32,000 nt of DNA from Kineococcus radiotolerans SRS30216 = ATCC BAA-149 (GCF_000017305.1 NC_009664.2:3600001-3632000); one strand, 5' to 3'. Shown: positions 548 to 31,232, numbered from the stretch's first letter. The notes: generated by a model not told the origin, from the sequence alone. Program-made: numbers and translations.

Positions 548-591
548 GCGTCGGAGCCTAGGAACGGCCTCCGCAGAAGTCCAACACCTGA

Positions 592-612
592 TTCTTCTCG
601 TCGGCAGAAGTA
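592..612. promoter_or_regulatory. candidate LysR-type (T-N11-A) binding site in the divergent AKR/LysR promoter region
   Basis: The 75-bp intergenic region 548-622 is locally GC-poor. CTTCT (594-598) and AGAAG (606-610) are perfect inverted pentamers, and T596/A608 give the T-N11-A spacing. A third AGAAG lies at 575-579. Confidence 0.4.
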
Positions 613-622
613 CAGTTTCTGG

Positions 623-1543
623 ATGGACCTCCGTCAGATGCAGTACGTCGTCGCCCTGGCCGACGAGCGGCAGTTCACCCGGGCCGCGGCGCTGAGCGGG
701 GTGTCGCAGTCGGGGCTCTCGGCGGCGATCCGCACCCTGGAGGACGAGCTGGGCGCCACCCTGTTCGACCGCAGCCCCCGGCGGGTGGAGCCGACCGACG
801 CCGGCCTGGCCCTGCTGCCCTTCGCCCGCACCCTGCTCGCCCAGGCCACCGCGGCGCGCGACGCCGTCGTGCAGGCCACCCGCCGGTTGTCCGGCACCCT
901 GCGGGTGGGGGCCGAGCAGTGCCTGGGCGTCGTCGACGTCTCCACGCTGCTGGAGCGCTTCCACCGGCGCTTCCCGCAGGTCGAGATCCACTTCGAGCAG
1001 GCCGGGTCCCACGACCTGCTGGGCCGGTTGCGCGAGGGGGAGCTCGACCTGGTGTTCGTGGCGACCACCGAGCACCTCGGTGCCCTGCCCGCCAGCGAGC
1101 TCGGCCGCGAGCCGCTGGTCCTGCTGACCCCGCCCGAGCACCCGCTGGCCGGGCGCCCGCACGCGCCGTGGGCGGAGCTGGCGGCCCACCCGTTCATCGA
1201 CTTTGTGCCCTCCTGGGGCGTGCGGCCGATCACCGACGCGGCCTGCGCCGCCCACGGGGTGCACCGGCGGGTGCGGTTCAGCGTCGGCGACGTCCACGCC
1301 CTGCTCGACCTCGTGGGACGGGGCCTCGGGATCGCCATCGTGCCCCGCCACGTCGCCGCCAAGCCCCAGGCCGCCCGGCTCGCGGTCGTGCCGATGCCGC
1401 CCGGCACCCCGGAGTGGGTCGTCTCCGTCGTCACCTCCGCGGGCAGTTCCCCCGCCCCGCAGCTGCTGGAACTGCTGGAGGTCGAGCAGGCCGGGACGGT
1501 GGAGACGGCGACCGTCCGCCGGAACGGCAACGGCCTGCCGTAG
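623..1543 (+). CDS. LysR-family transcriptional regulator
   Basis: From ATG 623 the translation is MDLRQMQYVVALADERQFTRAAALSGVSQSGLSAAIRTLEDELGATLFDR, a typical LysR winged-HTH, followed by a substrate-binding-like domain. The 159 codons upstream in track ORF 146..1543 are antisense to the AKR gene. The gene is divergent from the AKR. Confidence 0.85.
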   Translation: MDLRQMQYVVALADERQFTRAAALSGVSQSGLSAAIRTLEDELGATLFDRSPRRVEPTDAGLALLPFARTLLAQATAARDAVVQATRRLSGTLRVGAEQCLGVVDVSTLLERFHRRFPQVEIHFEQAGSHDLLGRLREGELDLVFVATTEHLGALPASELGREPLVLLTPPEHPLAGRPHAPWAELAAHPFIDFVPSWGVRPITDAACAAHGVHRRVRFSVGDVHALLDLVGRGLGIAIVPRHVAAKPQAARLAVVPMPPGTPEWVVSVVTSAGSSPAPQLLELLEVEQAGTVETATVRRNGNGLP

Positions 1544-3621: not shown

Positions 3622-5184
3622 ATGGGCAGCGAGCTCGACGTCGTGAGCCCGTTCGGGCCCCTGGACGCCCTGGCGGAGACCGCGCACCGCCTCTACCTCG
3701 ACGGGTACGGCGAACGCGCCATCCAGGCCTGCCGCGAGGGCCTGCACCTCTGCGAGCTCGCCGGCGACGAGCGCACCGCCCGCTACCTCCAGTTCGTCTG
3801 CGGGGTCGCCCTCCACCAGCTCGGCCGCGCCGCCGAGGCCAGCGAGGAGGCCGGGCACCTGCTGCGCCGCCTCGGCACCGGCGCCGAACCGGTCTGGCGG
3901 GCCAAGGCCCTCGCCCTGCTCGCCGAGTCCCGCGTCGACCTCGGCATGACCGCCCTGGCCATGGACCACCTCGCCGAGGGCCAGCTCATCGTCACCGGCC
4001 AGCCCATCCGCACCTACGACCACCTCTCGGCGACCATGTCGGTGGCGCTGGCGCTCAACGCCCTCGCCCTGTTCGAACCCGCCGACGAGCTCATGGTCCA
4101 GATGCTCGCCCTGACCTTCCCGCCCGCCCGGGTGCGGCTCAACGTCGCCCAGGAGGCCGCCGTCCTGCAGGTCTCCTGGGGCGCGATGCTCGAGGTCGCC
4201 GGCCGCGGGGCCGACGCCTGGCCGCACTACGCCACCGCCCTGTCCCGGGCCGCCCTCATGCGGGCCCTGGCCCTGGAGGTCGACTACCCCGAGATGCACG
4301 CCCGGGCCGAGGCCATCGAGGCGTTCGTCCTCATGCGCACCGGCGACACCGCGCTGGCCGAGGGCCGGCTGCGACCGGCGATGGCCGCGTTCCGGCTGCG
4401 CGAGGAGCTCGCCGAGACCCAGATCGCCCGCATCGCGCTGGCCATGGCCAGCTCCGACGCCGGCCACCGCACCGAGGCCGCCGACCTCCTCGCCGCCGTC
4501 CAGCGGGTGTCCTCCTCGACCCAGCTCGACGTCTGGGGCCTCACCGCGCTCGCCGTCCGGGCCCGCAACGCCGTCCAGCACGACGGGCGCAACGAGGCCG
4601 CCGACGCCCTCGAGCTCCTCGCCCAGATCTCGCTGTCGCGGCTGTGGGAGGACCGGGAGAGCCGCTTCGAGGCGCTGCAGGACCGCATCCAGCAGCGCGA
4701 GATGGCCGAGCAGCACGAACGCATCGGCCGCGCCGCCCTCGTCGACCCCATGACGGGCCTGGGCAACCGGCGCCGGCTCCAGCAGGTCCTCGAACGCCCC
4801 GACCAGCGCTTCAGCGCCGTCCTGCTCGACGTCGACCGCTTCCGCGCCGTCAACGAGGAGCACGGCCGGGACACCGGCGACGCCGTCCTCCAGCGCATCG
4901 CCGACCTCCTGCAGCGCAACGTCTCCGACGACGACGTCGTCGTCCGCTACGGGGGCGACGAGTTCGTGGTGCTGGTGCCCGCGACGCGCGAGGCCACCGC
5001 GACGGCGGAACGGTTGCTCGAGGTCGTCCGCAAGGAACCCTGGCTGGAGATCTCCCTCGGCCTGCGCGTCACCGCCTCCGTCGGGCTCGCCGGGCCCGCC
5101 TCGGCCGCCGAGGCGCTCGCCGCGGCCGACGCGGCGCGCGAGGCGGCCAAGCGCGCCGGGCGCGACCGCCTCGTCGTGGCCTGA
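3622..5184 (+). CDS. GGDEF-domain diguanylate cyclase with a roughly 350-aa N-terminal helical-repeat (TPR-like) region
   Basis: The C-terminus reads [58 protein letters not shown] 3622 is preferred over track start 3589 because GGAGGG lies 5 nt upstream. Confidence 0.85.
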
Positions 5185-20280: not shown

Positions 20281-22170
20281 GTGGCGGGGCGCATCCATCC
20301 AGACGATCTGCAGGCGGTCAAGGAGCGGGTCCGGCTCGACGAGGTGGTGGGGGAGCAGGTCGCCCTGCGCTCCGGCGGGGTCGGTTCCTTCAAGGGGCTC
20401 TGCCCCTTCCACGACGAGCGCACCCCCAGCTTCACCGTCCGTCCCGTCACCGGGCGCTGGCGCTGCTTCGGCTGCGGGGAGTCCGGGGACGCCATCGAGT
20501 TCGTCATGCGCATCGACGGCCTCGGCTTCGCCGACGCCGTGGAGCGCCTGGCCCAGCGGGCCGGGGTGCAGCTGCGCTACGTCGACGACGGCGGCCGCAG
20601 CACCCAGCGCCCGGCCAGCGACGCCGGGCAGCGGCAGCGGCTGCTGGAGATGCACCGGGTCGCGGAGGAGTTCTACGGGCAGCAGCTGGCCGCGCCCGGC
20701 CCGGCCGAGACCGCCCGGGGGTTCCTCGCCGAGCGGGGGTTCAGCCGCGAGGACGCCGCGCGCTTCGGGGTGGGGTTCGCCCCCAACACCGGCGACGCGC
20801 TGCTGCGGCAGCTGCGCGCCAAGGGTTTCGGCGAGGAGGAGCTGGTCACCTCCGGGCTGGCCGGGCAGGGTCAGCGCGGTCTCTACGACCGGTTCCGCGG
20901 GCGCCTGGTGTGGCCGATCCGCGACGTCGGCGGGCACACCGTGGCCTTCGGGGCGCGCCGGCTGTTCGACGACGACCGCATCGAGGCGAAGTACCTGAAC
21001 TCCCCCGAGACCCCCGTCTACAAGAAGTCCCAGGCGCTGTACGGGCTGGACCTGGCCAAGCGCGAGATCTCGCGCACCAAGCGGGTCGTCGTCGTCGAGG
21101 GCTACACCGACGTCATGGCCTGCCACCTCTCCGGGGTGGGGACGGCCGTCGCGACCTGCGGGACGGCGTTCGGGGAGGACCACGCCCGGATCGTGCAGCG
21201 GATGCTGGGGGAGGCCGACGGGTCCGCGGAGGTCGTGTTCACCTTCGACGGCGACGCCGCGGGGCAGAAGGCCGCCCTGAAGGCCTACGAGCTCGACCAG
21301 CGGTTCAGCGCCCAGACCTACGTCGCGGTCGCCCCCGCCGGGCAGGACCCCTGCGAACTGCGGCTGTCGGCCGGGGAGGCGGCGGTGGCGCAGCTGGTCG
21401 AGGGCCGGGTGCCGCTGTTCGAGTTCGCCATCCGCTCCACCATCGAGCGGTTCGACCTGAACTCCGACGCGGGCCGGCTCGCCGCGCTCGACGCGGCCGC
21501 CCCCATCGTCGGGGCCATCCGCGACCGCGGTCTACAGCAGCGCTACGCCATCAACCTCGACCGCTGGACGGGGTTCCTCGACGAGCGGTTCGTCCTGGAC
21601 CGGGTGCGGGCGCACTCCGGCGCCCGGCCCGCGCAGCAGCCCGGCCGCCCCGCCGCGGCCGTGGCGCCGGCCCCGCCCCGGCTGCCCGCCGCCGATCCGC
21701 GCGACCCCGTCGCCCAGCTGGAGCGGCAGGTCCTGTCCTGCGTCCTGCAGGCCCCCTGGGCCGTGGCCGACGTCTTCGACTCCCTGGAGGCCGACGCGTT
21801 CGGCGCCCCCGGGCACCGGGCCGTGCACGACGCCGTCACCGCCGCCGGCGGCCCGGGGGAGGCGCCGCAGGGCCCGGCGTGGCTGGCGCGCGTCCTCGAC
21901 TACGCCGACGGCCCCGTCGCGGGGCTCGTCGACGAGCTGGCGGCCAGCGACCTGCCGGTGTCCAACGAGGAGGAGCTCGAGCGCTGGGGGCGCCAGCTCG
22001 TCGCCGCCCTCGTCGGGCAGTCGGCGACCCGCGCGGTCGCCGACGCCCGCCGCACCCTGCAGCGGCTGGACCCCACCAGCCAGGCCGAGGAGTACGCAGC
22101 CGTCTCGGCGGAGCTGTTCCGGCTGGAGGCCGCCCGGCGGACCTGGCAGGAGCGGGCCCAGGGCGCCTGA
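20281..22170 (+). CDS. dnaG: DNA primase
   Basis: VAGRIHPDDLQAVKERV, zinc ribbon CPFHDERTPSFTV..CFGCGESGD, and TOPRIM VVVEGYTDVMA..FDGDAAG. GTG 20281 lies in the frame of track ORF 19993..22170. Confidence 0.95.
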   Translation: MAGRIHPDDLQAVKERVRLDEVVGEQVALRSGGVGSFKGLCPFHDERTPSFTVRPVTGRWRCFGCGESGDAIEFVMRIDGLGFADAVERLAQRAGVQLRYVDDGGRSTQRPASDAGQRQRLLEMHRVAEEFYGQQLAAPGPAETARGFLAERGFSREDAARFGVGFAPNTGDALLRQLRAKGFGEEELVTSGLAGQGQRGLYDRFRGRLVWPIRDVGGHTVAFGARRLFDDDRIEAKYLNSPETPVYKKSQALYGLDLAKREISRTKRVVVVEGYTDVMACHLSGVGTAVATCGTAFGEDHARIVQRMLGEADGSAEVVFTFDGDAAGQKAALKAYELDQRFSAQTYVAVAPAGQDPCELRLSAGEAAVAQLVEGRVPLFEFAIRSTIERFDLNSDAGRLAALDAAAPIVGAIRDRGLQQRYAINLDRWTGFLDERFVLDRVRAHSGARPAQQPGRPAAAVAPAPPRLPAADPRDPVAQLERQVLSCVLQAPWAVADVFDSLEADAFGAPGHRAVHDAVTAAGGPGEAPQGPAWLARVLDYADGPVAGLVDELAASDLPVSNEEELERWGRQLVAALVGQSATRAVADARRTLQRLDPTSQAEEYAAVSAELFRLEAARRTWQERAQGA

Positions 22171-22287
22171 GCAGCCGCCGCCCGCCGCGCGCGCCCCGGC
22201 GCGGCCGCCGGGTGCGCGGAGCGGTCCGCGGGGCTGGTACGGTTGGACAGTCGTGACCGAGGGGTGACCCGAGGGAACGAGAAGTGG

Positions 22288-22360
22288 TCCCGCATAGCTC
22301 AATTGGCAGAGCAGCCGGCTGTTAACCGGCAGGTTGTTGGTTCGAGTCCAACTGCGGGAG
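22288..22360 (+). tRNA. tRNA-Asn (anticodon GTT)
   Basis: A cloverleaf can be drawn: acceptor TCCCGCA/TGCGGGA, D-arm AGCTCAATTGGCAGAGC, anticodon loop CT-GTT-AA, T-arm GTTGG-TTCGAGT-CCAAC, discriminator G. No CCA is encoded. Confidence 0.9.
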
Positions 22361-22365
22361 CATCC

Positions 22366-22399
22366 ACCGAGGGGCGTGCCGAGCGGCACGCCCCTCGGT
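22366..22399 (+). terminator. hairpin immediately after tRNA-Asn
   Basis: A 15-bp perfect stem (ACCGAGGGGCGTGCC / GGCACGCCCCTCGGT) with loop GAGC. Confidence 0.55.
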
Positions 22400-22479
22400 C
22401 GTTCCCGGGCCGGGCCGCGTCTCCGCGGCCGGGACGACCCCGCCGTGCGCGCCCGGCGGGCGGGAGCGACGATGGGGAC

Positions 22480-23190
22480 GTGCTGCTGCGACTCCCCGGT
22501 ACCTACCCCGCGCAGGGGGACACCCACCTCCTGACCCGCACCCTGGTCGAGCTCGACCTGGCCCGGGGGCGCGACGTGCTCGACGTGTGCACCGGCGGCG
22601 GGGCCGTGGCCCTGGCCGCGGCGCGCGCCGGGGCCCGCACGGTGACGGCCGTCGACCTCTCCCACCGGGCCGTGCTGACCGCGCGGGCCAACGCCCGGCT
22701 GGCCCGGGTGCGCGTGCAGGTGCGCCGCGGCGACCTCTTCGAGCCGGTCCGGGACCGGCGCTTCGGCCTCGTCCTCGCCAACCCGCCCTACGTCCCGGCC
22801 GCGACCGACCGGCTGCCGCGCCACCGCCCCGGGCGCTCCTGGGACGGCGGGATCGACGGCCGCGCCGTCCTGGACCGGATCTGCGAGGGCGTGGCCGGGG
22901 TCCTGACCCCCGGTGGCCGCTTCCTGCTGACCCAGTCGACGCTCGCCGGGGAGGAGCCCACCCTCACCCGGCTCGCGGAGAACGGGTTCTCGGCCGCGGT
23001 GGTCGCACGCGCGCCCGAGCCCTTCGGGCCGGTCATGCGCCGGCGCGAGGCCATGCTGCGCGAGCGCGGCCTGCTCGGCCCCGGCCAGGAGCACGAGGAA
23101 CTGGTGGTCATCGAGGCCCGGCTCCCCGTCGTCCTGCCCTCCGTCGCCGAGCAGTGCGGGAGAGCGGAGGGTTTCGGCAGTGTCGTCTGA
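22480..23190 (+). CDS. HemK/PrmC-MTQ2-like SAM-dependent methyltransferase (NPPY class)
   Basis: VLDVCTGGGAVALAAA (SAM motif I) and LVLANPPYVP (NPPY). The N-terminus LLRLPGTYPAQGDTHLL is typical of this family as I recall it. The GTG 22480 start is provisional. Confidence 0.75.
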   Translation: MLLRLPGTYPAQGDTHLLTRTLVELDLARGRDVLDVCTGGGAVALAAARAGARTVTAVDLSHRAVLTARANARLARVRVQVRRGDLFEPVRDRRFGLVLANPPYVPAATDRLPRHRPGRSWDGGIDGRAVLDRICEGVAGVLTPGGRFLLTQSTLAGEEPTLTRLAENGFSAAVVARAPEPFGPVMRRREAMLRERGLLGPGQEHEELVVIEARLPVVLPSVAEQCGRAEGFGSVV

Positions 23191-23404
23191 ACCCCGCCAG
23201 CGCGTCGTCATCACCGGCGACGGGCCCCACCTCGTCGAGGGACCCGTGGAGATCGTCCTGCCCGACGGGAGCCGGACGGTCTCCGAGCGCCCCGTGACGG
23301 CGCTGTGCGTCTGCTACCGCAGCACCTTGTACCCCATCTGCGACACCAGCCACCGGCGCCGTCGGCGCCCCACCCGCCCCGAGACCCCGGAGGAACCGTC
23401 GTGA
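23180..23404 (+). CDS. CDGSH-type iron-sulfur domain protein (variant CDTSH)
   Basis: 74 aa. VVITGDGPHLVEGPVEIVLPDG then ALCVCYRSTLYPICDTSH, which is C-x-C-x2-S-x3-P-x-C-D-x-S-H (3Cys-1His). The start overlaps the upstream gene by 11 nt. Confidence 0.75.
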   Translation: MSSEPRQRVVITGDGPHLVEGPVEIVLPDGSRTVSERPVTALCVCYRSTLYPICDTSHRRRRRPTRPETPEEPS

Positions 23405-24414
23405 CCGACACCTTGCCCGACGTGAGCACCGCCCCCGCCCTGCCCCGGGCCCGGGGACCGCTCAGCGAGGCGGTGCTGTCGCGCCTGCGCGGGGGTGCCC
23501 TCCCCGTCGTGGACGTGGCCGGTGCGGACCCGTGGGGCGAGGACCTCCAGCTGGCCCTCTACACCTGCTACGAACTGCACTACCGCGGTTTCGCCGGCGT
23601 CGACGACGACCTCGAGTGGGACCCCGCCCTCCTCGGCCTGCGCGCCGGGCTGGAACGGGAGTTCGCCGCCGCGGTGCGGGCCGCGGTCCCCGGCGGGGAC
23701 GACCTGGCCGGGGAGATCGCGGCCCTCGTCGCCGCCGACGACGGCGAGGGCGGCGTCTCGCACCACCTGCGCGAGACCGGCGAACCGTGGCAGTTCCGCG
23801 AGTACATCGCGATGCGCTCGGTCTACCACCTGAAGGAGGCCGACCCGCAGGCGTGGGTCATCCCCCGCCTGGAGGGGGCGGCGAAGGCGGCCCTGGTCAC
23901 GGTGGAGCACGACGAGTACGGCGCCGGCCGCGGGGAACGCATGCACGCGCGCCTCTTCGGCGACATGATGCTCGAACTCGGCCTCAGCGACGCCTACGGC
24001 GCCTACCTCGACCACGCCCCGGCCGAGGTGCTCGCCGAGGTGAACCTGATGTCGATGTTCGGGTTGCACCGCAAGCTCCGCGGGGCCCTCGTCGGGCAGT
24101 TCGCCGTCGTGGAACTCACGTCCTCCCCGGGGTCGAAGCGGCTCGTCGACGCCGCCCGCCGCCTGGACCTCGGACCCGCCACCGAGCACTTCTACGCCGA
24201 GCACGTCGAGGCCGACGCCGTCCACGAGCAGGTCGTGCGGCACGGCATCATCGAACCCCTCGTCGCGGAGGACCCGGCGATGGCCGCCGACGTGGTGTTC
24301 GGGATGCAGGCCGCGACCGCCCTCGACGAACGGCTCGGACGCCACCTCATGGCCACCTGGGCCGAGCGGCGCTCCGCGCTGCTGGTCCCCCTCGACGCGG
24401 ACGCGCACCGGTAG
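23401..24414 (+). CDS. heme-oxygenase-like diiron (iron-containing redox enzyme) family protein
   Basis: 337 aa. VEHDEYGAGRGERMHARLFGDMMLELGL, FAVVELTSS and YAEHVEADAVHEQ (H-x3-D-x2-H) match the ligand spacing of HDO/CADD-type diiron sites. The GTG start shares GTGA with the CDGSH stop. Confidence 0.7.
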   Translation: MTDTLPDVSTAPALPRARGPLSEAVLSRLRGGALPVVDVAGADPWGEDLQLALYTCYELHYRGFAGVDDDLEWDPALLGLRAGLEREFAAAVRAAVPGGDDLAGEIAALVAADDGEGGVSHHLRETGEPWQFREYIAMRSVYHLKEADPQAWVIPRLEGAAKAALVTVEHDEYGAGRGERMHARLFGDMMLELGLSDAYGAYLDHAPAEVLAEVNLMSMFGLHRKLRGALVGQFAVVELTSSPGSKRLVDAARRLDLGPATEHFYAEHVEADAVHEQVVRHGIIEPLVAEDPAMAADVVFGMQAATALDERLGRHLMATWAERRSALLVPLDADAHR

Positions 24415-24427
24415 GCTCCGCCCGCAG

Positions 24428-24456
24428 GCCGCCCCGCGGGTCCGAACCGCGGCGGC
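24428..24456 (+). terminator. bulged hairpin after the diiron-enzyme gene
   Basis: GCCG-CC-CCGCGG gtccgaa CCGCGG-CGGC, i.e. 6 + 4 bp with a 2-nt bulge. It lies between the stop (24414) and the tRNA (24463). Confidence 0.4.
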
Positions 24457-24462
24457 GTCCCC

Positions 24463-24536
24463 GGGGCGGTAGCTCAGTCGGTCAGAGCAGGGAACTCATA
24501 ATTCCTCGGTCGTGGGTTCGAGCCCCACCCGCCCCA
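24463..24536 (+). tRNA. tRNA with CAT anticodon: elongator tRNA-Met or lysidine-type tRNA-Ile2
   Basis: Acceptor GGGGCGG/CCGCCCC with a G1-C72 pair (so not an initiator), D-arm AGCTCAGTCGGTCAGAGC, anticodon loop CT-CAT-AA, T-arm GTGGG-TTCGAGC-CCCAC, discriminator A. Confidence 0.85.
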
Positions 24537-24645
24537 CGAACGTCCCCCGGGCCACACCCCACCACGTCCCCGACGGCCTCCTGGAGCACCGCGTCGGTCC
24601 GCGACGCGATCGAACTCGTCCTCGCCGAGCCGTCCCGCTCGCGGT

Positions 24646-24665
24646 GCCGGACCGGGCCGTCCGGC
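24646..24665 (-). terminator. short hairpin after the last small ORF
   Basis: GCCGGAC cgggcc GTCCGGC (7-bp stem), 4 nt beyond the stop at 24670. Confidence 0.35.
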
Positions 24666-24669
24666 GAGG

Positions 24670-25062
24670 TCAGCCCCGGTCCTCCTGCTCCCGCGCGAGG
24701 ATCCTCAGGCCGACGTCGTGGGCCTCGTCGGCGGCGGCCAGGCTCGCCCGCAGCGCGGCCTCCGCGGCCGCCACCTCCTCCAGGGCCGCCTGCGCACCGG
24801 CGGCCACGTGGGCCAGCCCCAGCGCCTCGGCCTTCTCCTTCAGCTCGACCATCTGCCGCACCAGCGCCGCGCGCCGGGGATCGTCGAGATCGGCCTGACC
24901 GCCGGCGCTGCCGGCCTTCGCCTCCCGCAGGACGCGCTGGAGGTGCTCCCGGGTCGGCTCGCCGCTCACCGTCCGATGCTCGCAGTTCGGCGCTCGCACG
25001 TCCTGCTGCGGAGGCTCGGGCGCCGAGACGCACGTCCCACCCGCCCCGTCGTCGCACCGCAC
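24670..25062 (-). CDS. hypothetical protein: Cys-rich N-terminus plus an Ala/Glu-rich predicted coiled coil
   Basis: GC3 is very high in this frame. GTG 25062 is preceded by GGAGGAGG with a 6-nt spacer. The translation is VRCDDGAGGTCVSAPEPPQQDVRAPNCEH.. then LVRQMVELKEKAEALGLAHVAAGAQAALEEVAAAEAALRASL. I recognise no family. Confidence 0.5.
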   Translation of the reverse strand: MRCDDGAGGTCVSAPEPPQQDVRAPNCEHRTVSGEPTREHLQRVLREAKAGSAGGQADLDDPRRAALVRQMVELKEKAEALGLAHVAAGAQAALEEVAAAEAALRASLAAADEAHDVGLRILAREQEDRG

Positions 25063-25106
25063 CGGCGGCCTCCTCCGGCGGCGGGAGAGCGACGACCGGC
25101 TCCGGC

Positions 25107-25451
25107 TCAGCCGATCACGGCCCACTCGGGCCGGAAGTCGTCGTGCTGGCGGTACTCGCTGGCCATGACCCGCAGCAGGAACCAGGCCGTGTCGTCGATC
25201 GGCGACGTGTTGTGGACGTCGAACAGGGCCCGGCGGACGGCGAGACCGCGGACGACGGAGGCCGGGTCGTGGCGGGCGACGTGCCGCCCGACGGCGTCGG
25301 CCCCCTCCTCGACCCGGGCGACGGGCCCGGCCTCGTCGAGGACCGCGCCGCCCTCGAAGCGCCACGCTCCCGGTGCGAGGCTCCGGGCGGCGTCCTCGTC
25401 GGCGTCGTAGCGGGCGCGGATGAAGGGGACGATGTCCTCGCGGTTGCTCAC
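25107..25451 (-). CDS. DUF6221-like hypothetical protein
   Basis: IVPFIRARYDADEDAAR.., HVARHDPASVVRGLAVRRALFD and YRQHDDFRPEW follow the pattern I associate with DUF6221 (actinobacterial/actinophage small proteins). The assignment is from memory. Confidence 0.65.
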   Translation of the reverse strand: MSNREDIVPFIRARYDADEDAARSLAPGAWRFEGGAVLDEAGPVARVEEGADAVGRHVARHDPASVVRGLAVRRALFDVHNTSPIDDTAWFLLRVMASEYRQHDDFRPEWAVIG

Positions 25452-25514
25452 GTCGCCACCCTCGCAGGTCCGCCGCGCCGCGCACCCCGCGCGGCCGTCA
25501 CCGCAACGCGGTCG

Positions 25515-25685
25515 TCACCAGAGCTTGCCCCGCCAGCTCAGGCCCTTCCCCAAGCGCACGCTCACCCGGCCCGTGGTGGACACCGTCGCGCGGCCGAGCC
25601 GCTTGGTGAGGCTCACGCCCGACCTCCCGGCGTTCAGCCGCAGGCCCCTGCCCAGTGCCTTGGACCAGCGGAACGAGAACGGCAC
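25515..25685 (-). CDS. DUF4236-like small protein (56 aa)
   Basis: VPFSFRWSKALGRGLRLNAGRSGVSLTKRLGRATVSTTGRVSVRLGKGLSW resembles the DUF4236 repeat pattern (F-R-F-R-K-S-x-K-x-G-x-G-x-R-x-N-x-S..G.S). GGAGGA lies 7 nt upstream of GTG 25685. An alternative GTG at 25748 would add 21 codons. Confidence 0.6.
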   Translation of the reverse strand: MPFSFRWSKALGRGLRLNAGRSGVSLTKRLGRATVSTTGRVSVRLGKGLSWRGKLW

Positions 25686-25789
25686 CCTGTGCTCCTCCGT
25701 CGAGTCGATCGTGCCCGTCGCGGCGGCGGACGCGCGAGCGCTCACCACCTGCCCGGCCAACGCGCACCGCGGACCCGCCGTTCCGGGGG

Positions 25790-25993
25790 TCAGCGGGAGG
25801 CTCGGCCCCGCAGGACCTCCAGCAGGCGGGCGCGGGGCGTGCCGCGGTCCACCGGACGCGGCGGGCACCCCGGCGTCGACGCGCGCGCCACGCTGCGCCG
25901 CACCGCGGGGGAGCCGGTGCCACCGGGGAGGGGGGACGGCCGGTCCCCGGCGGAGGACGGCCGGCGCGGGGCCGTGTCGAGACGCGGGGACAT
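25790..25993 (-). CDS. doubtful Pro/Arg-rich hypothetical ORF (67 aa)
   Basis: This is the frame with the highest GC3 in the interval, but GC at codon position 2 is also unusually high and the sequence is low-complexity. An alternative ATG lies at 26059. No family was recognised. Confidence 0.25.
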   Translation of the reverse strand: MSPRLDTAPRRPSSAGDRPSPLPGGTGSPAVRRSVARASTPGCPPRPVDRGTPRARLLEVLRGRASR

Positions 25994-26109
25994 GGGAGAC
26001 CTCTCGGGCGGGAGCGGGATCGGCGCCGTCGCGGGGCGCGAGCGGCGTCCTCCAGTCATCGGGGCGCGGGCGGTGCGACGACATCGCCTGGACGGGTGAG
26101 GTGCCCGGA

Positions 26110-26370
26110 TCAGCTCGCGCGGCCCATCGCGGCGAGCAGCTGGGGCAGGGTCGGGGCGCCGCTGGCGCGGAAGACCTCCGTGCCGTCCTCGGTGCGGACC
26201 ACGACCGTGGGTGTGCTGAGGACCCCCGCGGCCTCGGCCCGCGAGGTGTCGGCGGCGACGTCGACCTCCTCCACCCGGGCGCGCGGGACGAGGCGGGAGG
26301 CCTCGCCCAGGACGGCCCGGGCCGCGCGGCACGGACCGCAGAAGGCGGAGGAGAACAGCTCGACGATCAC
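26110..26370 (-). CDS. small thioredoxin-fold protein (FCGPC active site)
   Basis: VIVELFSSAFCGPCRAARAVL..LSTPTVVV..G, 86 aa, with near-saturated GC3. The start is GTG 26370, within the frame of track ORF 26110..26640. Confidence 0.7.
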   Translation of the reverse strand: MIVELFSSAFCGPCRAARAVLGEASRLVPRARVEEVDVAADTSRAEAAGVLSTPTVVVRTEDGTEVFRASGAPTLPQLLAAMGRAS

Positions 26371-26419
26371 CCCCGTCCCAACGCCCGCGGCCGGCGGGAG
26401 CTTCCGCGCGGGCGGTGGC

Positions 26420-27715
26420 CTACAACAGGTAGCGGTACAGCGGGTCCGTCGCCGAGATCCGCTCGAACGACGGGGGAGCGGCCTCCATCCGGGCCAGCAG
26501 CCCCGGCAGGTCGTCCTTGCCGGGGATCTCGATGCCCACCAGGGCCGGCCCGAACTCGCGGTTGTTCCGCTTGACGTACTCGAAGAGCGTGACGTCGTCG
26601 TCCGGGCCGAGCACCTCGTCGAGGAAGCGGCGCAGCGCACCGGGCTCCTGCGGGAACTCCACGAGGAAGTAGTGCTTGCGGCCCTCGTGGACGAGGGCCC
26701 GCTCGATGATCTCCGCGTAGCGGCTGATGTCGTTGTTGCCGCCGGAGACCACGCAGACCACGCTCTGGCCCGGTTCGACGCGGACCGCCTCCGCCAGCGC
26801 CGCCGTGGCCAGCGCCCCCGCGGGCTCGGCGATGATCCCGTCGGTCTGGTACATCGCCAGCATCTCCACGCAGATCGCCCCCTCGGGCACCGCGACGAGC
26901 TCCACCTCGTGACCGGCCACCACGGCGTGCGGGACGTCGCCGACGCGGCGGACCGAGGCGCCGTCGACGAAGGTGTCCAGGTGCTCCAGCCGCACCGGAC
27001 GACCGGCGGCCAGCGCCGCCGCCATCGAGGGCGCCCCCGCGGGCTCCACCCCCACGACCCGCACCTGCGGGTGCCGCTCGCGGACCCAGGCCAGCACCCC
27101 GGCCAGCAGCCCGCCCCCGCCGACGGGGACGACGACCACGTCCGGCGGGCCCTCGCCGAGCTGCTCGAGCTGCTCGAAGACCTCGACCGCGACCGTGCCC
27201 TGCCCCGCGACCGTCCGGGCGTCGTCGAAGGCGGGCACCATCGTCGCGCCGGTGCGCTCGGCGTCCTCGAGCGCCGCGGCGGCGGAGTCGTCGTAGGTGT
27301 CGCCCAGGACGATGGTCTCCACGAACTCCTGGCCCAGGGCGGCGATGCGGTCCCGCTTCTGGCGCGGGGTCGTGCGCGGCACGTAGATGCGTCCGCGCAC
27401 CCGCAGGGCCGCGCAGGCGTAGGCCAGGCCCTGGGCGTGGTTGCCGGCGCTCGCGGTGACCACCCCGCGCCCGCGCTGCTCGTCGGTGAGCTGGGAGACC
27501 AGGTTGTAGGCCCCGCGCAGCTTGTAGGAGCGCACGACCTGGAGGTCCTCCCGCTTGACGCGCACGTGCGCCCCCAGGGCGGCCGACCAGCGGGCGCTGG
27601 TGGCGAGGGGGGTGCGGGTCACGACCCGGGACAGCCGCTCGGCCGCCGCTTCGACGTCCGCCGCCCGGGGCGGTGCGTCGGGCGGGGCGGGAGCGGGCAC
27701 GGCATCGAGCGACAT
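26420..27715 (-). CDS. ilvA: threonine ammonia-lyase (threonine dehydratase), short form with one regulatory domain
   Basis: KREDLQVVRSYKLRGAYN (PLP lysine), SAGNHAQG, VPVGGGGLLAG and a C-terminal ACT-like segment. ATG 27715 lies within track ORF 26420..28342. Confidence 0.9.
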   Translation of the reverse strand: MSLDAVPAPAPPDAPPRAADVEAAAERLSRVVTRTPLATSARWSAALGAHVRVKREDLQVVRSYKLRGAYNLVSQLTDEQRGRGVVTASAGNHAQGLAYACAALRVRGRIYVPRTTPRQKRDRIAALGQEFVETIVLGDTYDDSAAAALEDAERTGATMVPAFDDARTVAGQGTVAVEVFEQLEQLGEGPPDVVVVPVGGGGLLAGVLAWVRERHPQVRVVGVEPAGAPSMAAALAAGRPVRLEHLDTFVDGASVRRVGDVPHAVVAGHEVELVAVPEGAICVEMLAMYQTDGIIAEPAGALATAALAEAVRVEPGQSVVCVVSGGNNDISRYAEIIERALVHEGRKHYFLVEFPQEPGALRRFLDEVLGPDDDVTLFEYVKRNNREFGPALVGIEIPGKDDLPGLLARMEAAPPSFERISATDPLYRYLL

Positions 27716-27851
27716 GGGGTCGATCCTGCCCGTCCCCGCCCGACCACCACCACCAGGGGTGGGTGGGGCCGAGCCTCTCAACGCGGGTGGGTGCGGGAGG
27801 TTCCGGACCGTCGTGTGATGTGGCGCACATCCGAGCGCCACGGGGTAGAAG

Positions 27852-27890
27852 AAAGGTGAGGCTGCCCTAGCATCGGCGAGGCTCACCTCA
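27852..27890. promoter_or_regulatory. two adjacent IdeR/DtxR-like iron-box candidates upstream of efeU
   Basis: AAAGGTGAGGCTGCCCTAG (27852-27870) and ATCGGCGAGGCTCACCTCA (27872-27890) each match 13 of 19 positions of TTAGGTTAGGCTAACCTAA. AGGTGAGGCT and AGGCTCACCT form an imperfect inverted pair. A TAGCAT -10-like hexamer lies at 27868-27873, 54 nt before the efeU start. Confidence 0.35.
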
Positions 27891-27926
27891 CTCCGGTGGG
27901 TCCCCGCCCGACCCGAGGAGCTGCCC

Positions 27927-28760
27927 GTGCTCGCCACGTTCGTCGTCGGACTGCGCGAGGGCCTCGAGGCCTCCCTGATCGTCGGCATCGTCGCCGCGTT
28001 CCTCGTCCAGCGCGGGGAGCGGCGCGCCCTGCGCCCGGTCTGGGCGGGGGTCCTGCTCGCCGTCGCGCTGTGCGTCGGCGCCGCCGCCGCCCTGCAGGCC
28101 GCCACCCGGCAGCTGCCCCAGCGCCAGCAGGAGCAGCTGGAGACCGTCCTCGCCCTGGCCGCCGTGGCGGTGGTCACGTACATGATCGTCTGGATGACCC
28201 GGCACGCCCGCTCGATGCGGGCCGACCTCGAGCACGCCGCCACCTCCGCGCTGGGCAGGGGGTCCTCCCGGGCGCTGGTCGCGATGGCCTTCCTCGCCGT
28301 CCTGCGCGAGGGGCTGGAGACCTCGGTCTTCCTCCTGGCCACGTACCGCGCCTCGGGCCGCCACGTCGAGGGCGCGCTCGGCGCCTCCCTCGGCCTCCTG
28401 CTGGCCGTCGCGCTGGGCTACCTGGTCTACCGCGGCGGCGTCCGCCTCGACCTCGGCCGGCTGTTCCGCGTCACCGGCGTCCTCCTCGTCCTCGTCGCGG
28501 CCGGGCTGGTCGTGTCCGCCGCCCACACGGCCCACGAGGCGGGCTGGCTGCTGGTCGGCCAGCAGCGCGCCCTGGACCTGTCCGCGCTGGTGGAACCCGG
28601 CACCGTCCGCGCCGCGCTGTTCACCGGCGTGCTCGGCTGGCAGCCGCGTCCCACCGTGGCCGAGGTCGTCGGCTGGCTCGCCTACGCGCTGCCCGTGCTC
28701 GTCGTCGTCCTGCGGCCCCGGGCCACCCCCACCCCCGCTCCCCGCTCCGTCCCCGCCTGA
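27927..28760 (+). CDS. efeU: FTR1/EfeU-family high-affinity iron permease
   Basis: Two REGLE motifs (VGLREGLEASL and AVLREGLETSV) and seven hydrophobic spans. GAGGAG lies 6 nt upstream of the GTG. Confidence 0.9.
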   Translation: MLATFVVGLREGLEASLIVGIVAAFLVQRGERRALRPVWAGVLLAVALCVGAAAALQAATRQLPQRQQEQLETVLALAAVAVVTYMIVWMTRHARSMRADLEHAATSALGRGSSRALVAMAFLAVLREGLETSVFLLATYRASGRHVEGALGASLGLLLAVALGYLVYRGGVRLDLGRLFRVTGVLLVLVAAGLVVSAAHTAHEAGWLLVGQQRALDLSALVEPGTVRAALFTGVLGWQPRPTVAEVVGWLAYALPVLVVVLRPRATPTPAPRSVPA

Positions 28761-28807
28761 CCCGCACCCCGCCCGGCCCCCGCGGCCGGCGTCCCGAAAG
28801 GCCACCC

Positions 28808-29965
28808 GTGTCCCGACCGCGCCTCCTGCTCGCCCTCGCGGCCAGCCCCCTCCTGCTCCTCGCCGCCTGCGGGGGCGGCGACGCCGGGGGCTCCTCCGAC
28901 GCGTCCGCCGCCGGGACGGTGCACGTCTCCCTCACCGACGACGGCTGCACCGCCGAGCCCAGCTCCGTCCCCGCGGGGTCGACCACCTTCGAGGTCGTCA
29001 ACGACGGCGCCGGTGCCGTCACCGAGGCCGAGCTGGTCAACGCCGGCGGCCGCATCGTCGGTGAGCGGGAGAACCTCACCCCCGGGCTGAGCGCCAGCTT
29101 CTCCCTGGACCTCGAGGCCGGCGACTACACCGTGCAGTGCCCGAACGCCGCGACCGAGAGCTCCCCGTTCACCGTGACCGGGGCGAGCGCCACCCCGTCC
29201 ACCACCGCGTCCGCCACCGGGGACCCCCTCTTCGCCGCCGCCACCCGCGGCTACCAGGACTACGTGCGGGCCCAGGTCGCCGACCTCGTCACCGCCACCG
29301 GCGCCTTCGCGGCCGCGGTCGAGGCCGGCGACGTCGAGCGGGCCAAGGCGCTCTACGGCCCGGCCCGCGCGCCCTACGAGCGCGTCGAACCCGTCGCCGA
29401 GAGCTTCGGGGACCTCGACCCGCTCATCGACGCCCGCGTGGCCGACGTCGAGGACCCCGCCACCTGGGGCGGCTTCCACCGCATCGAGCAGGCGCTGTGG
29501 GTCGACGGCACGACCGCGGGCATGACCCCGGTCGCCCGGGAGCTCGTCGCGCACGTCGCCGAGCTCGACGAGCTCGTGGCGACCACGACCTACCAGCCGG
29601 CCGACCTCGCCAACGGGGCCAGCGCCCTGCTCGACGAGGTCGCCGCCTCCAAGGTCACCGGGGAGGAGGAGGCCTACTCCCACCTGGACCTGCTCGACTT
29701 CGCCGCCAACGTCGAGGGCGCGCGCCGGGCCTTCGACCTGCTCACCCCCGCCCTGCAGGTGACCGACCCCGAGCTCGTCGCCGACCTGACGACCCGGTTC
29801 GACGCGGTCACCGCCTCCCTGGCGCCCTACCGGCAGGGCGAGAGCTACGTCTCCTACACGACCCTGTCCCCGGAGCAGGTGCGGATGCTCGCCACCGGGG
29901 TCGACGCCCTCGCCGAACCGCTCTCCACGGTGTCCGGCAAGGTCGTCGGCGCCGCGAGCCGGTGA
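28808..29965 (+). CDS. efeO: EfeO iron-uptake lipoprotein (cupredoxin-like N domain plus M75-like domain)
   Basis: A lipobox LLLAAC. The N domain reads [35 protein letters not shown]. The C domain has GFHRIEQALW (HxxE). Confidence 0.9.
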   Translation: MSRPRLLLALAASPLLLLAACGGGDAGGSSDASAAGTVHVSLTDDGCTAEPSSVPAGSTTFEVVNDGAGAVTEAELVNAGGRIVGERENLTPGLSASFSLDLEAGDYTVQCPNAATESSPFTVTGASATPSTTASATGDPLFAAATRGYQDYVRAQVADLVTATGAFAAAVEAGDVERAKALYGPARAPYERVEPVAESFGDLDPLIDARVADVEDPATWGGFHRIEQALWVDGTTAGMTPVARELVAHVAELDELVATTTYQPADLANGASALLDEVAASKVTGEEEAYSHLDLLDFAANVEGARRAFDLLTPALQVTDPELVADLTTRFDAVTASLAPYRQGESYVSYTTLSPEQVRMLATGVDALAEPLSTVSGKVVGAASR

Positions 29966-29972
29966 GGCCGGC

Positions 29973-31232
29973 GTGAACCCCGTCCGTCCCACCCGCCGCG
30001 GCGTCCTCACCGGCGCCGCGGTCGTCGGCGCGGCCGGCCTCGGCGCGGGCGCGAGCGCCCTCGCCGGGCGCGAGGCCGCCGCCACCCCCGGCGCCACGCG
30101 CACCGTGCCCTTCCACGGCGCGCGGCAGGCGGGCATCACCACCCCCGCCCAGGACTCCCTGGTCTTCGCCGCCCTCGACGTCACCACCAGCCGGGCCGGG
30201 GAGCTCGCCGACGTCCTGCAGCGCTGGAGCGAGGCCGCCGCGACGATGGCCACCGGCGCCCCGGTGGGCGGGCCCGGGGGGCTGGGCGGCGCGGCGGACG
30301 AACCGCCGCTGGACACCGGGGAGGCCCACGAGCTGCCCCCCGCCAACCTCACCGTGACCCTCGGGTACGGCCCGTCGCTGTTCGACGGGCGCTTCGGACT
30401 GGCCGGACGCCGCCCCGCGGCGCTGGAGGAGCTGCCCGCCCTGCCCGGGGAGCAGCTCGACCCGACCCGCTGCGGCGGCGACCTGTGCCTGCAGGCCTGC
30501 GCCGACGACCCCCAGGTGGCCTTCCACGCCGTCCGCAACCTGGTGCGCATCGGGCGCGGGGTGGTCGCGGTGCGCTGGGTGCAGCTGGGCTTCGGGCGCA
30601 CCGCGACGACCTCCGCGGGACAGCCCACCCCGCGCAACCTCATGGGCTTCAAGGACGGCACCGCCAACCTGCGGGCCGAGGACACCGCCGGGCTCGACCG
30701 CCACGTCTGGGTCGGCGGCGAGGGGGCGCCGGCGGCCGACCAGGAGTGGATGCGCGGCGGCACCTACCTCGTGGCCCGCCGCATCCGCATGCTCGTCGAG
30801 GCCTGGGACCGCGCCCCGCTGGGGGAGCAGGAACGCGTCATCGGGCGCGCCAAGGTCTCCGGGGCGCCGCTGACGGGCACCTCGGAGTTCGACCCCCCGG
30901 ACCTGGCCAGGACCTCCGCGACGGGGGAGCCGGTCATCGACGTCGCCGCGCACATGCGGCTGGCCGCCCCGGAGACCAACGGCGGCGCGAGGATCCTGCG
31001 CCGCGGGTACTCCTACACCGACGGTCTCGACCTCACCACCGGTCAGCTCGACGCGGGGCTGTTCTTCATCTGCTTCGGCAACGACCCGGCGTCGCAGTTC
31101 GTCGCCATCCAGCGCCGTCTCGGCGCGAGGGACGGACTCACCGAGTACCTCAAGCACACCGGTTCGGCGATCTTCGCCTGCCCGCCCGGCACCGCCGAGG
31201 GGGAGAGCTGGGGCCAGGGGCTCTTCACCTGA
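29973..31232 (+). CDS. efeB: EfeB, Tat-exported Dyp-type peroxidase/deferrochelatase
   Basis: Twin-arginine signal PTRRGVLTGAAVVGAAGLG, FHGARQAGI, and the Dyp GxxDG motif in MGFKDGTANL. Confidence 0.9.
   Translation: MNPVRPTRRGVLTGAAVVGAAGLGAGASALAGREAAATPGATRTVPFHGARQAGITTPAQDSLVFAALDVTTSRAGELADVLQRWSEAAATMATGAPVGGPGGLGGAADEPPLDTGEAHELPPANLTVTLGYGPSLFDGRFGLAGRRPAALEELPALPGEQLDPTRCGGDLCLQACADDPQVAFHAVRNLVRIGRGVVAVRWVQLGFGRTATTSAGQPTPRNLMGFKDGTANLRAEDTAGLDRHVWVGGEGAPAADQEWMRGGTYLVARRIRMLVEAWDRAPLGEQERVIGRAKVSGAPLTGTSEFDPPDLARTSATGEPVIDVAAHMRLAAPETNGGARILRRGYSYTDGLDLTTGQLDAGLFFICFGNDPASQFVAIQRRLGARDGLTEYLKHTGSAIFACPPGTAEGESWGQGLFT

Follow-up and report, generated by a model that had tools for sequence, protein, structure and literature searches.

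To our knowledge, all known MTQ2-type methyltransferases need Trm112, and neither a partner nor a substrate has been described for the bacterial enzymes of this type. Bacterial CDGSH proteins are related to the medically important mitoNEET family. Type-4 CDGSH iron-sulfur domain (CISD) proteins, the predominant CDGSH type in Actinobacteria, are recognized by a P motif, 3Cys-1His ligands and a basic residue after the His ligand, and a structural survey of the CISD types gave no function for type-4 CISDs or bacterial CDGSH proteins (PMC3174974). The heme-oxygenase-like diiron oxidases/oxygenases (HDOs) form a large group in which, according to a 2026 mini-review, only about 12 of more than 10,000 sequences have a known reaction (PMC13108848). 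HDOs need an external reductant, and MboB, reported in a 2026 paper, is possibly the first dedicated HDO redox partner (PMC13185094). Here, we describe a locus in which these three families meet. It occupies positions 22,480 to 24,414 of a 32,000-nt stretch of DNA from Kineococcus radiotolerans SRS30216 = ATCC BAA-149 (GCF_000017305.1 NC_009664.2:3600001-3632000; the whole stretch is called the window, and positions are counted from its first letter) and encodes an MTQ2-type methyltransferase (MT; open reading frame ORF1), a CDGSH protein (ORF2) and an HDO (ORF3).

The grouping of HDO, MTQ2-type methyltransferase and CDGSH protein as partners appears to be new, and databases name the three proteins by family only. 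A full-text literature search, outside which most subscription-journal papers fall, found nothing that combines CDGSH with 'heme oxygenase-like' and 'methyltransferase' or with 'iron-containing redox enzyme', and the papers containing both CDGSH and diiron were irrelevant to the module. The initial annotation of the window, made from its sequence, knew of no characterized pathway uniting the three families; consistent with this, neither the HDO mini-review (PMC13108848) nor the MboAB paper (PMC13185094) names a CDGSH partner. The reading that we favor, with moderate confidence, is that the trio may be a self-contained three-gene module of Actinomycetota for stress-induced N-methylation/N-oxygenation, in which the CDGSH protein would act as both hub and electron donor.

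The three genes lie on the same strand and are joined by overlapping stop and start codons, and both the coordinates and the overlaps proposed in the initial annotation were reproduced (Table 1). The CDGSH gene starts with a GTG at 23180, which gives an 11-nt overlap with the MT gene and its TGA stop codon at 23188-23190, while the GTGA at 23401-23404 contains the HDO start as well as the CDGSH stop. Both downstream genes are preceded by a GGAGG: that of the CDGSH gene (23166-23170) stands 9 nt from the start codon and that of the HDO gene (23389-23393) 7 nt. Independent public gene calls on identical contigs likewise give proteins of 236, 74 and 337 amino acids (aa). Profile searches matched all three of the families that had been expected, namely PF05175 MTS, PF09360 zf-CDGSH and PF14518 Haem_oxygenas_2.

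The linkage of the three genes was examined in a census based on an HDO profile search of species-representative genomes, which yielded at least 597 loci, the best 80 of which were kept; the MT and CDGSH genes in these loci were located by tblastn with the window proteins. All 80 loci belong to several orders of Actinomycetota and include Kineococcus, Aquipuribacter, Knoellia, Pseudonocardia, Saccharopolyspora, Actinosynnema, Nocardiopsis, Actinomadura, Actinoallomurus and Streptomyces, as well as metagenome-assembled genomes (MAGs) of Geodermatophilaceae and Mycobacteriales, and the module is widespread in Streptomyces, Pseudonocardia, Nocardiopsis, Nocardia and their relatives. The closest named relative of the HDO is from K. 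aurantiacus (85% identity), and HDOs are 57-79% identical across orders. MT, CDGSH and HDO genes occur together within approximately 2 kb in 72 of the 80 loci; four of the other eight are cut by contig ends and four, namely L004, L063, L068 and L074, are real exceptions. Four arrangements were observed: MT-CDGSH-HDO in 35 loci (including L001, placed here from its tblastn coordinates), HDO-MT-CDGSH in 33, MT and CDGSH on the opposite strand flanking HDO in two, and HDO convergent with CDGSH-MT in two. The convergent arrangement was also seen in Nocardia farcinica and on a Streptomyces plasmid.

Linkage that outlasts repeated rearrangement is a classical signature of functional coupling. It could be supposed instead that they are unrelated neighbors whose overlaps reflect the compact gene packing of a high-GC genome, as overlapping stop/start codons are generally known to be common in actinobacterial genomes. 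This explanation is refuted by the census and retains almost no probability: co-location is kept across several Actinomycetes orders through at least four rearrangements, gene fusions exist, and the genes are co-regulated in published Mycobacterium smegmatis data. Recurrent linkage, on which the initial annotation had staked its proposal, is thus borne out by the number of loci, the variety of gene orders and the fusions.

ORF3 scored 188.6 bits against PF14518 (cut-off 28.9) over residues 133-309, and its predicted ligands E146, E172, H182, E238, H268, D272 and H275 (DNA 23836-24225) align with E189/E215/H225/E281/H311/D315/H318 of SznF. This 3His/4carboxylate set is estimated to occur in approximately one-fourth of HDOs, and SznF shares it with the ferritin-like N-oxygenases AurF and CmlI (PMC13108848). 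All seven ligands are invariant in alignments of 15, 41 and 79 sequences, so that the conservation required by the original proposal holds throughout the 79 orthologues. When a profile of 15 sequences was compared with the PDB, HrmI (E 2e-10), SznF (2e-8) and RohS (6e-7) were matched. The AlphaFold 2 (AF2) model of the protein is all-helical, with a predicted local distance difference test (pLDDT) score of 87.7 and a predicted template modeling (pTM) score of 0.87, and its top Foldseek matches are again SznF, HrmI and RohS over the full length, with template modeling (TM) scores of approximately 0.7 (E 7e-9 for SznF and HrmI). FlcD follows next, and the matches to CADD, BesC, UndA, PqqC and TenA are far weaker, the PqqC/TenA structures reaching only E 0.02-0.08 and TM 0.39-0.46. 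By sequence and predicted fold, ORF3 is therefore grouped with the N-oxygenases SznF, HrmI and RohS and not with TenA/PqqC-like proteins, and on these grounds it is a metal-dependent HDO of the N-oxygenase clade, predicted to bind two Fe and to activate O2. It is not an SznF orthologue, because the C-terminal cupin domain of SznF is absent: the HDO ends at residue 337 with PF14518 as its sole Pfam domain, whereas SznF has 450-490 aa, and the TM score normalized to SznF is only 0.54. Among the motifs initially read in ORF3, VVELTS and H-x3-D-x2-H are present, and the supposed DEYGAG-x6-H has a true spacing of DEYGAG-x5-H182. TsnB9 (trichostatin), considered as a possible HDO that N-hydroxylates a glutamine amide, was dropped as a precedent; the literature describes TsnB6/7 as the amidooxygenase and TsnB9 as a hydroxyamidotransferase.

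ORF2 matches PF09360 zf-CDGSH over the full 48-position profile (54.5 bits; cut-off 29.5) with the predicted ligands C43, C45, C54 and H58 (C43-x-C45...C54-D-T-S-H58; DNA 23306-23353). It was the sole Pfam family found at E ≤ 0.1, and no similarity to Trm112 was seen at that threshold. Features of type 4 are the P motif G15-P16-H-L-V (GPHLV) at the N-terminus, S48, P52 and the basic R59 after the His ligand, which completes the variant motif CDTSHR, and the closest solved structure is that of the Ralstonia type-4 CISD (3TBM, residues 9-61). The four ligands are invariant, and CD(T/A)SH was present in all of 72 orthologues; the Gly of CDGSH is not kept, being Thr56 in ORF2 and Thr or Ala in each of the 72. 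Since CD(T/A)SH is always seen and the ligands are intact, the Gly replacement should be considered a hallmark of the subfamily and not a defect. The early description of a variant CDGSH motif thus stands with regard to CDTSH and the retained 3Cys-1His ligands, but not with regard to an atypical basic position, as R59 is normal for type-4 CDGSH proteins. The protein is predicted to bind a redox-active [2Fe-2S] cluster.

ORF1 passes the HemK2/MTQ2 model TIGR00537 (119.8 bits; cut-off 87) and scores 53.9 bits with PF05175, while the PrmC equivalog TIGR03534 gave 89 bits against a cut-off of 199.1, and the models of PrmC, PrmB and PrmA were all below their cut-offs. The S-adenosylmethionine (SAM) motif I VLDVCTGGG and the NPPY motif that had been recognized at the outset are both present (NPPY at residues 101-104, DNA 22780-22791), followed by an MTQ2-like WDGGxDGR. 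SAM motif I, NPPYVP and WDaGxDGR are invariant in 73 MT orthologues, for which the NCBI name is 'HemK2/MTQ2 family protein methyltransferase'. The MT fold was compared by Foldseek through the AF2 model of an orthologous MT domain, taken from the natural fusion protein P0324 described below. Its top nine matches are all human HEMK2/N6AMT1/KMT9 (TM 0.79-0.88, target-normalized), the best being HEMK2/N6AMT1-TRMT112 with TM 0.86-0.88, compared with 0.53 for E. coli PrmC. The modeled domain has a single-domain MTQ2/HEMK2-like fold and lacks the N-terminal substrate-recognition domain of PrmC. Structures of HEMK2/N6AMT1 have been solved only with TRMT112, and no Trm112-like gene was found in the module. 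A further protein, P0509, consists of a KsgA/RsmA-like domain fused to an MTQ2-like domain.

The CDGSH gene is connected with both enzyme genes. Of its 66 scorable junctions with the MT gene, 53 show an overlap, of 1-41 nt, and two independent natural MT-CDGSH fusions exist. One, P0324 (L085 5001-5906), is a 301-aa MT-CDTSH fusion whose 3′ end is overlapped by an HDO gene; it comes from a MAG contig of 7x coverage, and a frameshift artefact is possible. The other, P0366 (L086 4979-5920), is a divergent 313-aa MT-CDGTH fusion with a canonical CDGTH, 47% identical to P0324, and an HDO gene (44% identical) lies 1.2 kb upstream of it. On the HDO side, the CDGSH stop overlaps the HDO start in 24 of the 31 junctions of the MT-CDGSH-HDO order, 19 of these overlaps being of 4 nt, and the two genes also occur as overlapping pairs, both in L004 and on the 62-kb Curtobacterium plasmid pW21 (L087, record 37513-38822), where the HDO is 46% identical and the overlap is 4 nt. 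No MT was annotated or detectable near either pair. No CDGSH-HDO fusion was found among the 120 closest CDGSH homologues. The fact that CDGSH is tied to both enzymes, through fusions and gene order on the MT side and through pairs without MT on the HDO side, fits a hub or ternary-complex model. Two ideas put forward in the initial annotation each gain some support: that of an electron donor to the HDO from the HDO+CDGSH pairs, and that of a Trm112-like partner from the fusions, the near-constant overlapping MT→CDGSH order and the HEMK2-like fold.

Several side observations were made at these loci. In L086, a gene for a YbdK/GCS2-family carboxylate-amine ligase (3810-4976, minus strand) lies between HDO and the P0366 fusion, and one for an F420-dependent LLM oxidoreductase (TIGR03559; 5931-6971) follows the fusion; these may hint at an amino-acid-type substrate and a source of reductant in that lineage. 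The neighbors of the pair on pW21 are RES-family, SIR2-family and Lsr2 genes. On the linear plasmid of Streptomyces sp. NBC_00984 (L088 3606-5879), a VOC-family gene (glyoxalase fold) shares 4 nt with the HDO start, and gas-vesicle genes, an IS3 transposase and the gene of a Rieske protein are adjacent. Two other apparent joints are probably assembly or sequencing artefacts: P0454, in which MT residues 1 to ~148 are joined directly to the C-terminal two thirds of HDO, and P0452, a frameshift-riddled read-through of MT, CDGSH and HDO.

In most lineages, upstream motifs suggest that the module is driven by a SigB/SigF-type general-stress promoter. In 38 of 68 loci, GGGTA[C/T/G] begins 14-19 nt upstream of the start codon (shuffles: mean 1.1, maximum 5), four apparent misses being miscalled start codons, and it lies at exactly -15 in 25 Streptomyces loci. 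A GTTT/GNNT element is located 13-16 nt upstream of GGGTA, and the motif fits the consensus of the nine SigB homologues of S. coelicolor and of mycobacterial SigF (PMC8346170, PMC4694148). Since the promoter is placed at a fixed distance of 9-12 nt from the module's first start codon, the transcripts would be leaderless or nearly so. Relatives bearing the promoter are found in the series L005-L080 (e.g., L031, L038, L008, L010, L011 and L025) and in L089 (3953-3970 and 6085-6125). In Nocardia farcinica, the HDO gene is preceded by GGGTAT-N9-ATG and the MT gene by GTTT-N16-GGTATT-N8-GTG.

An apparent counterpart has already been captured in M. smegmatis, where the published SigF regulon lists the adjacent genes MSMEG_1771, 1772 and 1773, all decreased by approximately log2 6 in a sigF mutant. 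MSMEG_1771 (A0QTA5 / WP_011727889.1) is a 222-aa 'methylase, putative' with the promoter GTTT-N15-GGGTA, MSMEG_1772 begins approximately 667 nt after the MSMEG_1771 start as calculated from its listed promoter distance, and MSMEG_1773 has its own SigF promoter 11 nt upstream. The three are described in the papers as uncharacterized or conserved hypothetical, and a deletion mutant of MSMEG_1771, a gene picked under an ethanol-induction criterion, is viable (PMC9679996). The 26-mer of the MSMEG_1773 promoter has exact matches in three metagenome contigs (L090, L091 and L092), and the 32-mer of the MSMEG_1771 promoter gave no metagenome match. In these contigs, an HDO 53.5% identical to that of the window begins 12 nt after the 26-mer and is followed by a CDGSH gene in convergent orientation (59% identical) and by an MT of 222 aa (43%) whose stop overlaps the CDGSH start. 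This context, the gene length and the spacing all match, which suggests that MSMEG_1771, 1772 and 1773 are MT, CDGSH and HDO, and it is most likely, from these sequence features, that the module corresponds to MSMEG_1771-1773. In L090, an IS110-like transposase gene (412 aa; 56-1294, minus strand, up to 1545) terminates shortly before the MT start and replaces the SigF promoter of MSMEG_1771, as is also the case in L091 and L092, and the MT-CDGSH unit of the three contigs may thus be uncoupled from SigF.

The favored reading of a stress-induced module can be laid out as a series of proposed steps. Overlapping stop and start codons would couple translation, so that MT, CDGSH and HDO are made together. 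The HDO would bind two Fe(II) through its SznF-like 3His/4carboxylate site, activate O2 and, by analogy with SznF, HrmI and RohS, oxygenate a substrate nitrogen of the amine, guanidine or amide type. The dimeric type-4 CDGSH [2Fe-2S] protein, docked on the MTQ2-like MT, would be the hub that bridges both enzymes, passing electrons one at a time to return the diferric HDO to its reduced state after every turnover. Either before or after oxygenation, the NPPY methyltransferase would N-methylate the same substrate at a planar nitrogen of the amine or amide type, for which SznE/SznF offers a precedent.

A number of points weigh against this reading. Methyltransferases with NPPY also have proteins, rRNA, tRNA and DNA among their substrates. 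The proposed N-oxygenation is taken from relatives that are only approximately 20% identical, and HDOs with identical ligands catalyze very different reactions (PMC13108848). The module encodes no NAD(P)H-dependent reductase; its copy in the window has no GGGTA promoter (none in 22362-22479); and MSMEG_1771-1773 are equated with it through the promoter 26-mer, the spacing and the gene lengths rather than through the sequence of the reference genome. Among the exceptions in the census, L063 and L068 contain the HDO gene alone and L074 contains MT and HDO without a CDGSH gene. The CDGSH gene is, moreover, tied more tightly to MT than to HDO: the order MT→CDGSH is kept in 70 of the 72 complete loci, and half the loci have the MT gene interposed between CDGSH and HDO. 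Such a tie fits a role as MT partner at least as well as a role as HDO reductant. Finally, the AF2 model of the P0324 fusion (pTM 0.73; pLDDT 53-83 in the CDGSH part) shows no confident docking of the two domains.

In a tentative alternative, the CDGSH protein would chiefly be the obligate small partner of the MTQ2-like MT, replacing Trm112 functionally by stabilizing or activating the enzyme; its cluster might make MT activity redox-, O2- or NO-dependent, and the HDO would be a separate pathway enzyme using general reductants. A fold closest to enzymes solved only with TRMT112, the TIGR00537 score above cut-off, the order and overlaps of the two genes, the two fusions, the MT gene standing between CDGSH and HDO in half the loci and the general Trm112 dependence of MTQ2-type enzymes are what would be expected of such a pair, but the partner has no similarity to Trm112, strictly keeps all four ligands of a redox cluster, overlaps the HDO start in most junctions, accompanies HDO where no MT is nearby, and forms no confident interface with the MT in the fusion model. 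The roles of Trm112 surrogate and electron donor are compatible. It is conceivable, and unlikely rather than probable, that both are combined in a ternary complex, in which a bifunctional CDGSH protein would serve as Trm112-like MT partner and as HDO electron donor while the two enzymes jointly install an N-methyl/N-oxy group (of the N-methyl-hydroxylamine, N-oxide or nitroso type) on a common metabolite or protein as an output of SigB/SigF stress control. If this is true, bacterial CDGSH proteins would acquire a defined function for the first time.

With regard to the substrate, clustering of all flanking ORFs at the 80 loci revealed no fourth conserved gene beyond synteny at the Streptomyces or genus level, and no transporter, regulator, reductase or further enzyme was a conserved neighbor. 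The substrate is therefore probably either a ubiquitous metabolite, such as an amino-acid-like amine or guanidine, or a cellular macromolecule. We regard as rather doubtful the specific proposal that the module modifies a macromolecule, e.g., an rRNA or tRNA base or a Gln, Lys or Arg residue in a ribosomal protein or translation factor, with the HDO oxidizing the same or an adjacent group under stress. All characterized HemK/MTQ2 relatives that we found do target either nucleic acids or proteins, the latter being release factors, L3 and histone H4. In addition, the module is part of a general stress regulon, HDO sequences are highly conserved across orders, and no biosynthetic, transport or resistance genes lie nearby; against this, nearly all characterized HDOs use free fatty-acid/amino-acid substrates or short peptides (PMC13108848, PMC13185094), with SznF, HrmI and RohS using free Arg, Lys or aminoimidazole substrates, the mutant lacking MSMEG_1771 is viable, and a link to translation genes is absent elsewhere, as the adjacency to dnaG and tRNA is found in the window genome only. 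A riboswitch or leader RNA was considered as a clue to the substrate and rejected, as Rfam at gathering thresholds matched only tRNAs in the window and 11 diverse loci.

The module copy in the window lies downstream of dnaG and tRNA-Asn, and its flanks contain several further features (Table 1). The initial annotation placed the unit between two tRNAs and between two insulating hairpins. Both tRNAs are indeed present, but no other locus among 60 scanned is bracketed by tRNAs, and dnaG adjoins the module in none of the 80 loci; the bracketing is thus peculiar to this genome and not a trait of the module. As for insulation, the upstream hairpin (inverted repeat I19, 100% complementary) is significant at -35.1 kcal/mol (z = -7.66; 0 of 200 shuffles as good) and may act as a terminator or as a processing stem of the tRNA transcript, whereas the downstream stem-loop is no better than shuffled GC-rich sequence (-24.2 kcal/mol, z = -0.81; equaled by 43 of 200 shuffles). 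A scan of 22000-24800 for sigma-70 promoters and intrinsic terminators called none.

Table 1. Coordinates of the module genes and flanking features in the window
Feature	Position	Strand	Description
MT gene	22480-23190	+	GTG start, 236 aa, HemK2/MTQ2-type SAM-dependent methyltransferase (ORF1)
CDGSH gene	23180-23404	+	GTG start, 74 aa, type-4 CDGSH iron-sulfur domain protein (ORF2)
HDO gene	23401-24414	+	GTG start, 337 aa, heme-oxygenase-like diiron oxidase/oxygenase (ORF3)
tRNA-Asn (GTT)	22288-22361	+	ARAGORN; Rfam RF00005, 70.2 bits; context, outside the conserved module
tRNA (CAT anticodon), called tRNA-Met	24463-24537	+	ARAGORN; Rfam, 70.9 bits; context
Upstream hairpin	22366-22399	+	perfect 15-bp G+C-rich stem directly after tRNA-Asn, no T-run
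Downstream stem-loop	24428-24456	+	weak, between HDO stop and CAT tRNA

Could the tRNA position be a trace of integration, with the module representing an island that is mobile or targeted to tRNAs, or else an accessory element of the anti-phage or toxin-like kind? Its chromosomal location does vary between genomes, copies occur on plasmids and beside insertion sequence (IS) elements, the window copy lies between two tRNAs, and the MT has a partial PADLOC match to the 'mad2' methylase model. That match, however, covers the generic methyltransferase core only, CDGSH and HDO have no matches in defense libraries, neither an integrase nor att-like flanking repeats were found, GC content is uniform (0.72-0.82), and bracketing by tRNAs does not recur at the other loci, so we consider this origin very improbable.

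Two repeats were noted in the same region. An imperfect 18-nt direct repeat (83%), ACCGAGGGG(T/C)G...CCGAG, lies on either side of tRNA-Asn (22256-22273 and 22366-22383); the strong hairpin takes its 5′ arm from the second copy. An exact 14-nt repeat, GCCCCACCCGCCCC, is shared by the part of the CDGSH gene coding for the C-terminal tail (23367-23380) and the 3′ end of the CAT tRNA (24522-24535), perhaps by chance in DNA of 75% GC. Further downstream (~24670-31232), gene calls taken from the identical contig L081 (offset +18203) place on the minus strand small genes (130 aa, DUF6221 at 25107-25451, DUF4236 and 67 aa), a thioredoxin-like gene (~26110-26370), threonine dehydratase (~26420-27715) and an EfeUOB-like iron-uptake set consisting of FTR1 (~27927-28760), an EfeO-like gene (~28808-29965) and a DyP peroxidase (~29973-31232). 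No link of these genes to the module was seen in other genomes.

The module ties together the questions of the HDOs, the bacterial CDGSH proteins and the bacterial MTQ2-type methyltransferases, and its apparent counterpart is a set of three among the most strongly SigF-dependent genes of M. smegmatis. As this organism is a tractable model and a deletion mutant of MSMEG_1771 exists, these questions are directly testable, including the reaction of this HDO clade, the purpose of bacterial CDGSH proteins and the role of this part of the SigF/SigB regulon.

Compared with the described systems, the locus shares individual elements with each of them. The arrangement of MSMEG_1771-1773 differs in being convergent, HDO facing MT-CDGSH and each unit having its own SigF promoter, whereas the window copy is a single MT-CDGSH-HDO unit without a SigF promoter. 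The CDGSH protein resembles Ralstonia RsCISD (3TBM) in length, domain layout, P motif (GPxLV), 3Cys-1His ligands and the basic residue after His; it differs from type-4 CISDs in that its orthologous group has Thr or Ala in place of the CDGSH Gly and in that the genes sit in a defined genomic partnership. The MTQ2/HEMK2-Trm112 heterodimers of eukaryotes and archaea likewise contain a single-domain NPPY methyltransferase passing TIGR00537, which in the module is encoded with a small Cys-rich, predicted metal-binding protein. In contrast to those heterodimers, the partner here is a CDGSH [2Fe-2S] domain by its sole Pfam match, the bacterial host has no eRF1, and an oxygenase is always linked in the module.

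Among the HDO systems, MboA/MboB (mangotoxin acetylenase and reductase) provides the example of an HDO encoded with an Fe-S redox partner needed for multiple turnovers (PMC13185094), a partnership that is predicted for the module. MboB is an NAD(P)H/flavin/[2Fe-2S] reductase, whereas the 74-aa CDGSH protein of the module lacks any flavin or nucleotide domain; the substrate that MboA desaturates is a tripeptide, and MboA is absent among the 50 fold matches listed for ORF3. HrmI/BelK (lysine N6-oxygenase) and RohS (2-aminoimidazole N-oxygenase) are HDO N-oxygenases and the best sequence and fold matches, HrmI matching over its whole length, including the N-terminal helices, with TM 0.70 by either chain. 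They are, however, only 15-21% identical, belong to natural-product clusters and have no reported CDGSH or MTQ2-type partner, and HrmI is a 3His/3carboxylate enzyme (PMC13108848). A parallel in overall design is SznE/SznF (StzE/StzF) of the N-nitrosourea pathway to streptozotocin, in which an N-methyltransferase and an HDO N-oxygenase act on one substrate (PMC11705231). The ligands of SznF correspond one-to-one to those of ORF3, of which it is the top fold match (TM ~0.72) at approximately 20% identity; since ORF3 has no C-terminal cupin domain, it should be unable to form an N-N bond in the manner of SznF. Unlike SznE/SznF, the module combines its HDO with a CDGSH partner and an MTQ2-type methyltransferase, lies outside a biosynthetic gene cluster, is broadly conserved and appears to be under stress-sigma control.

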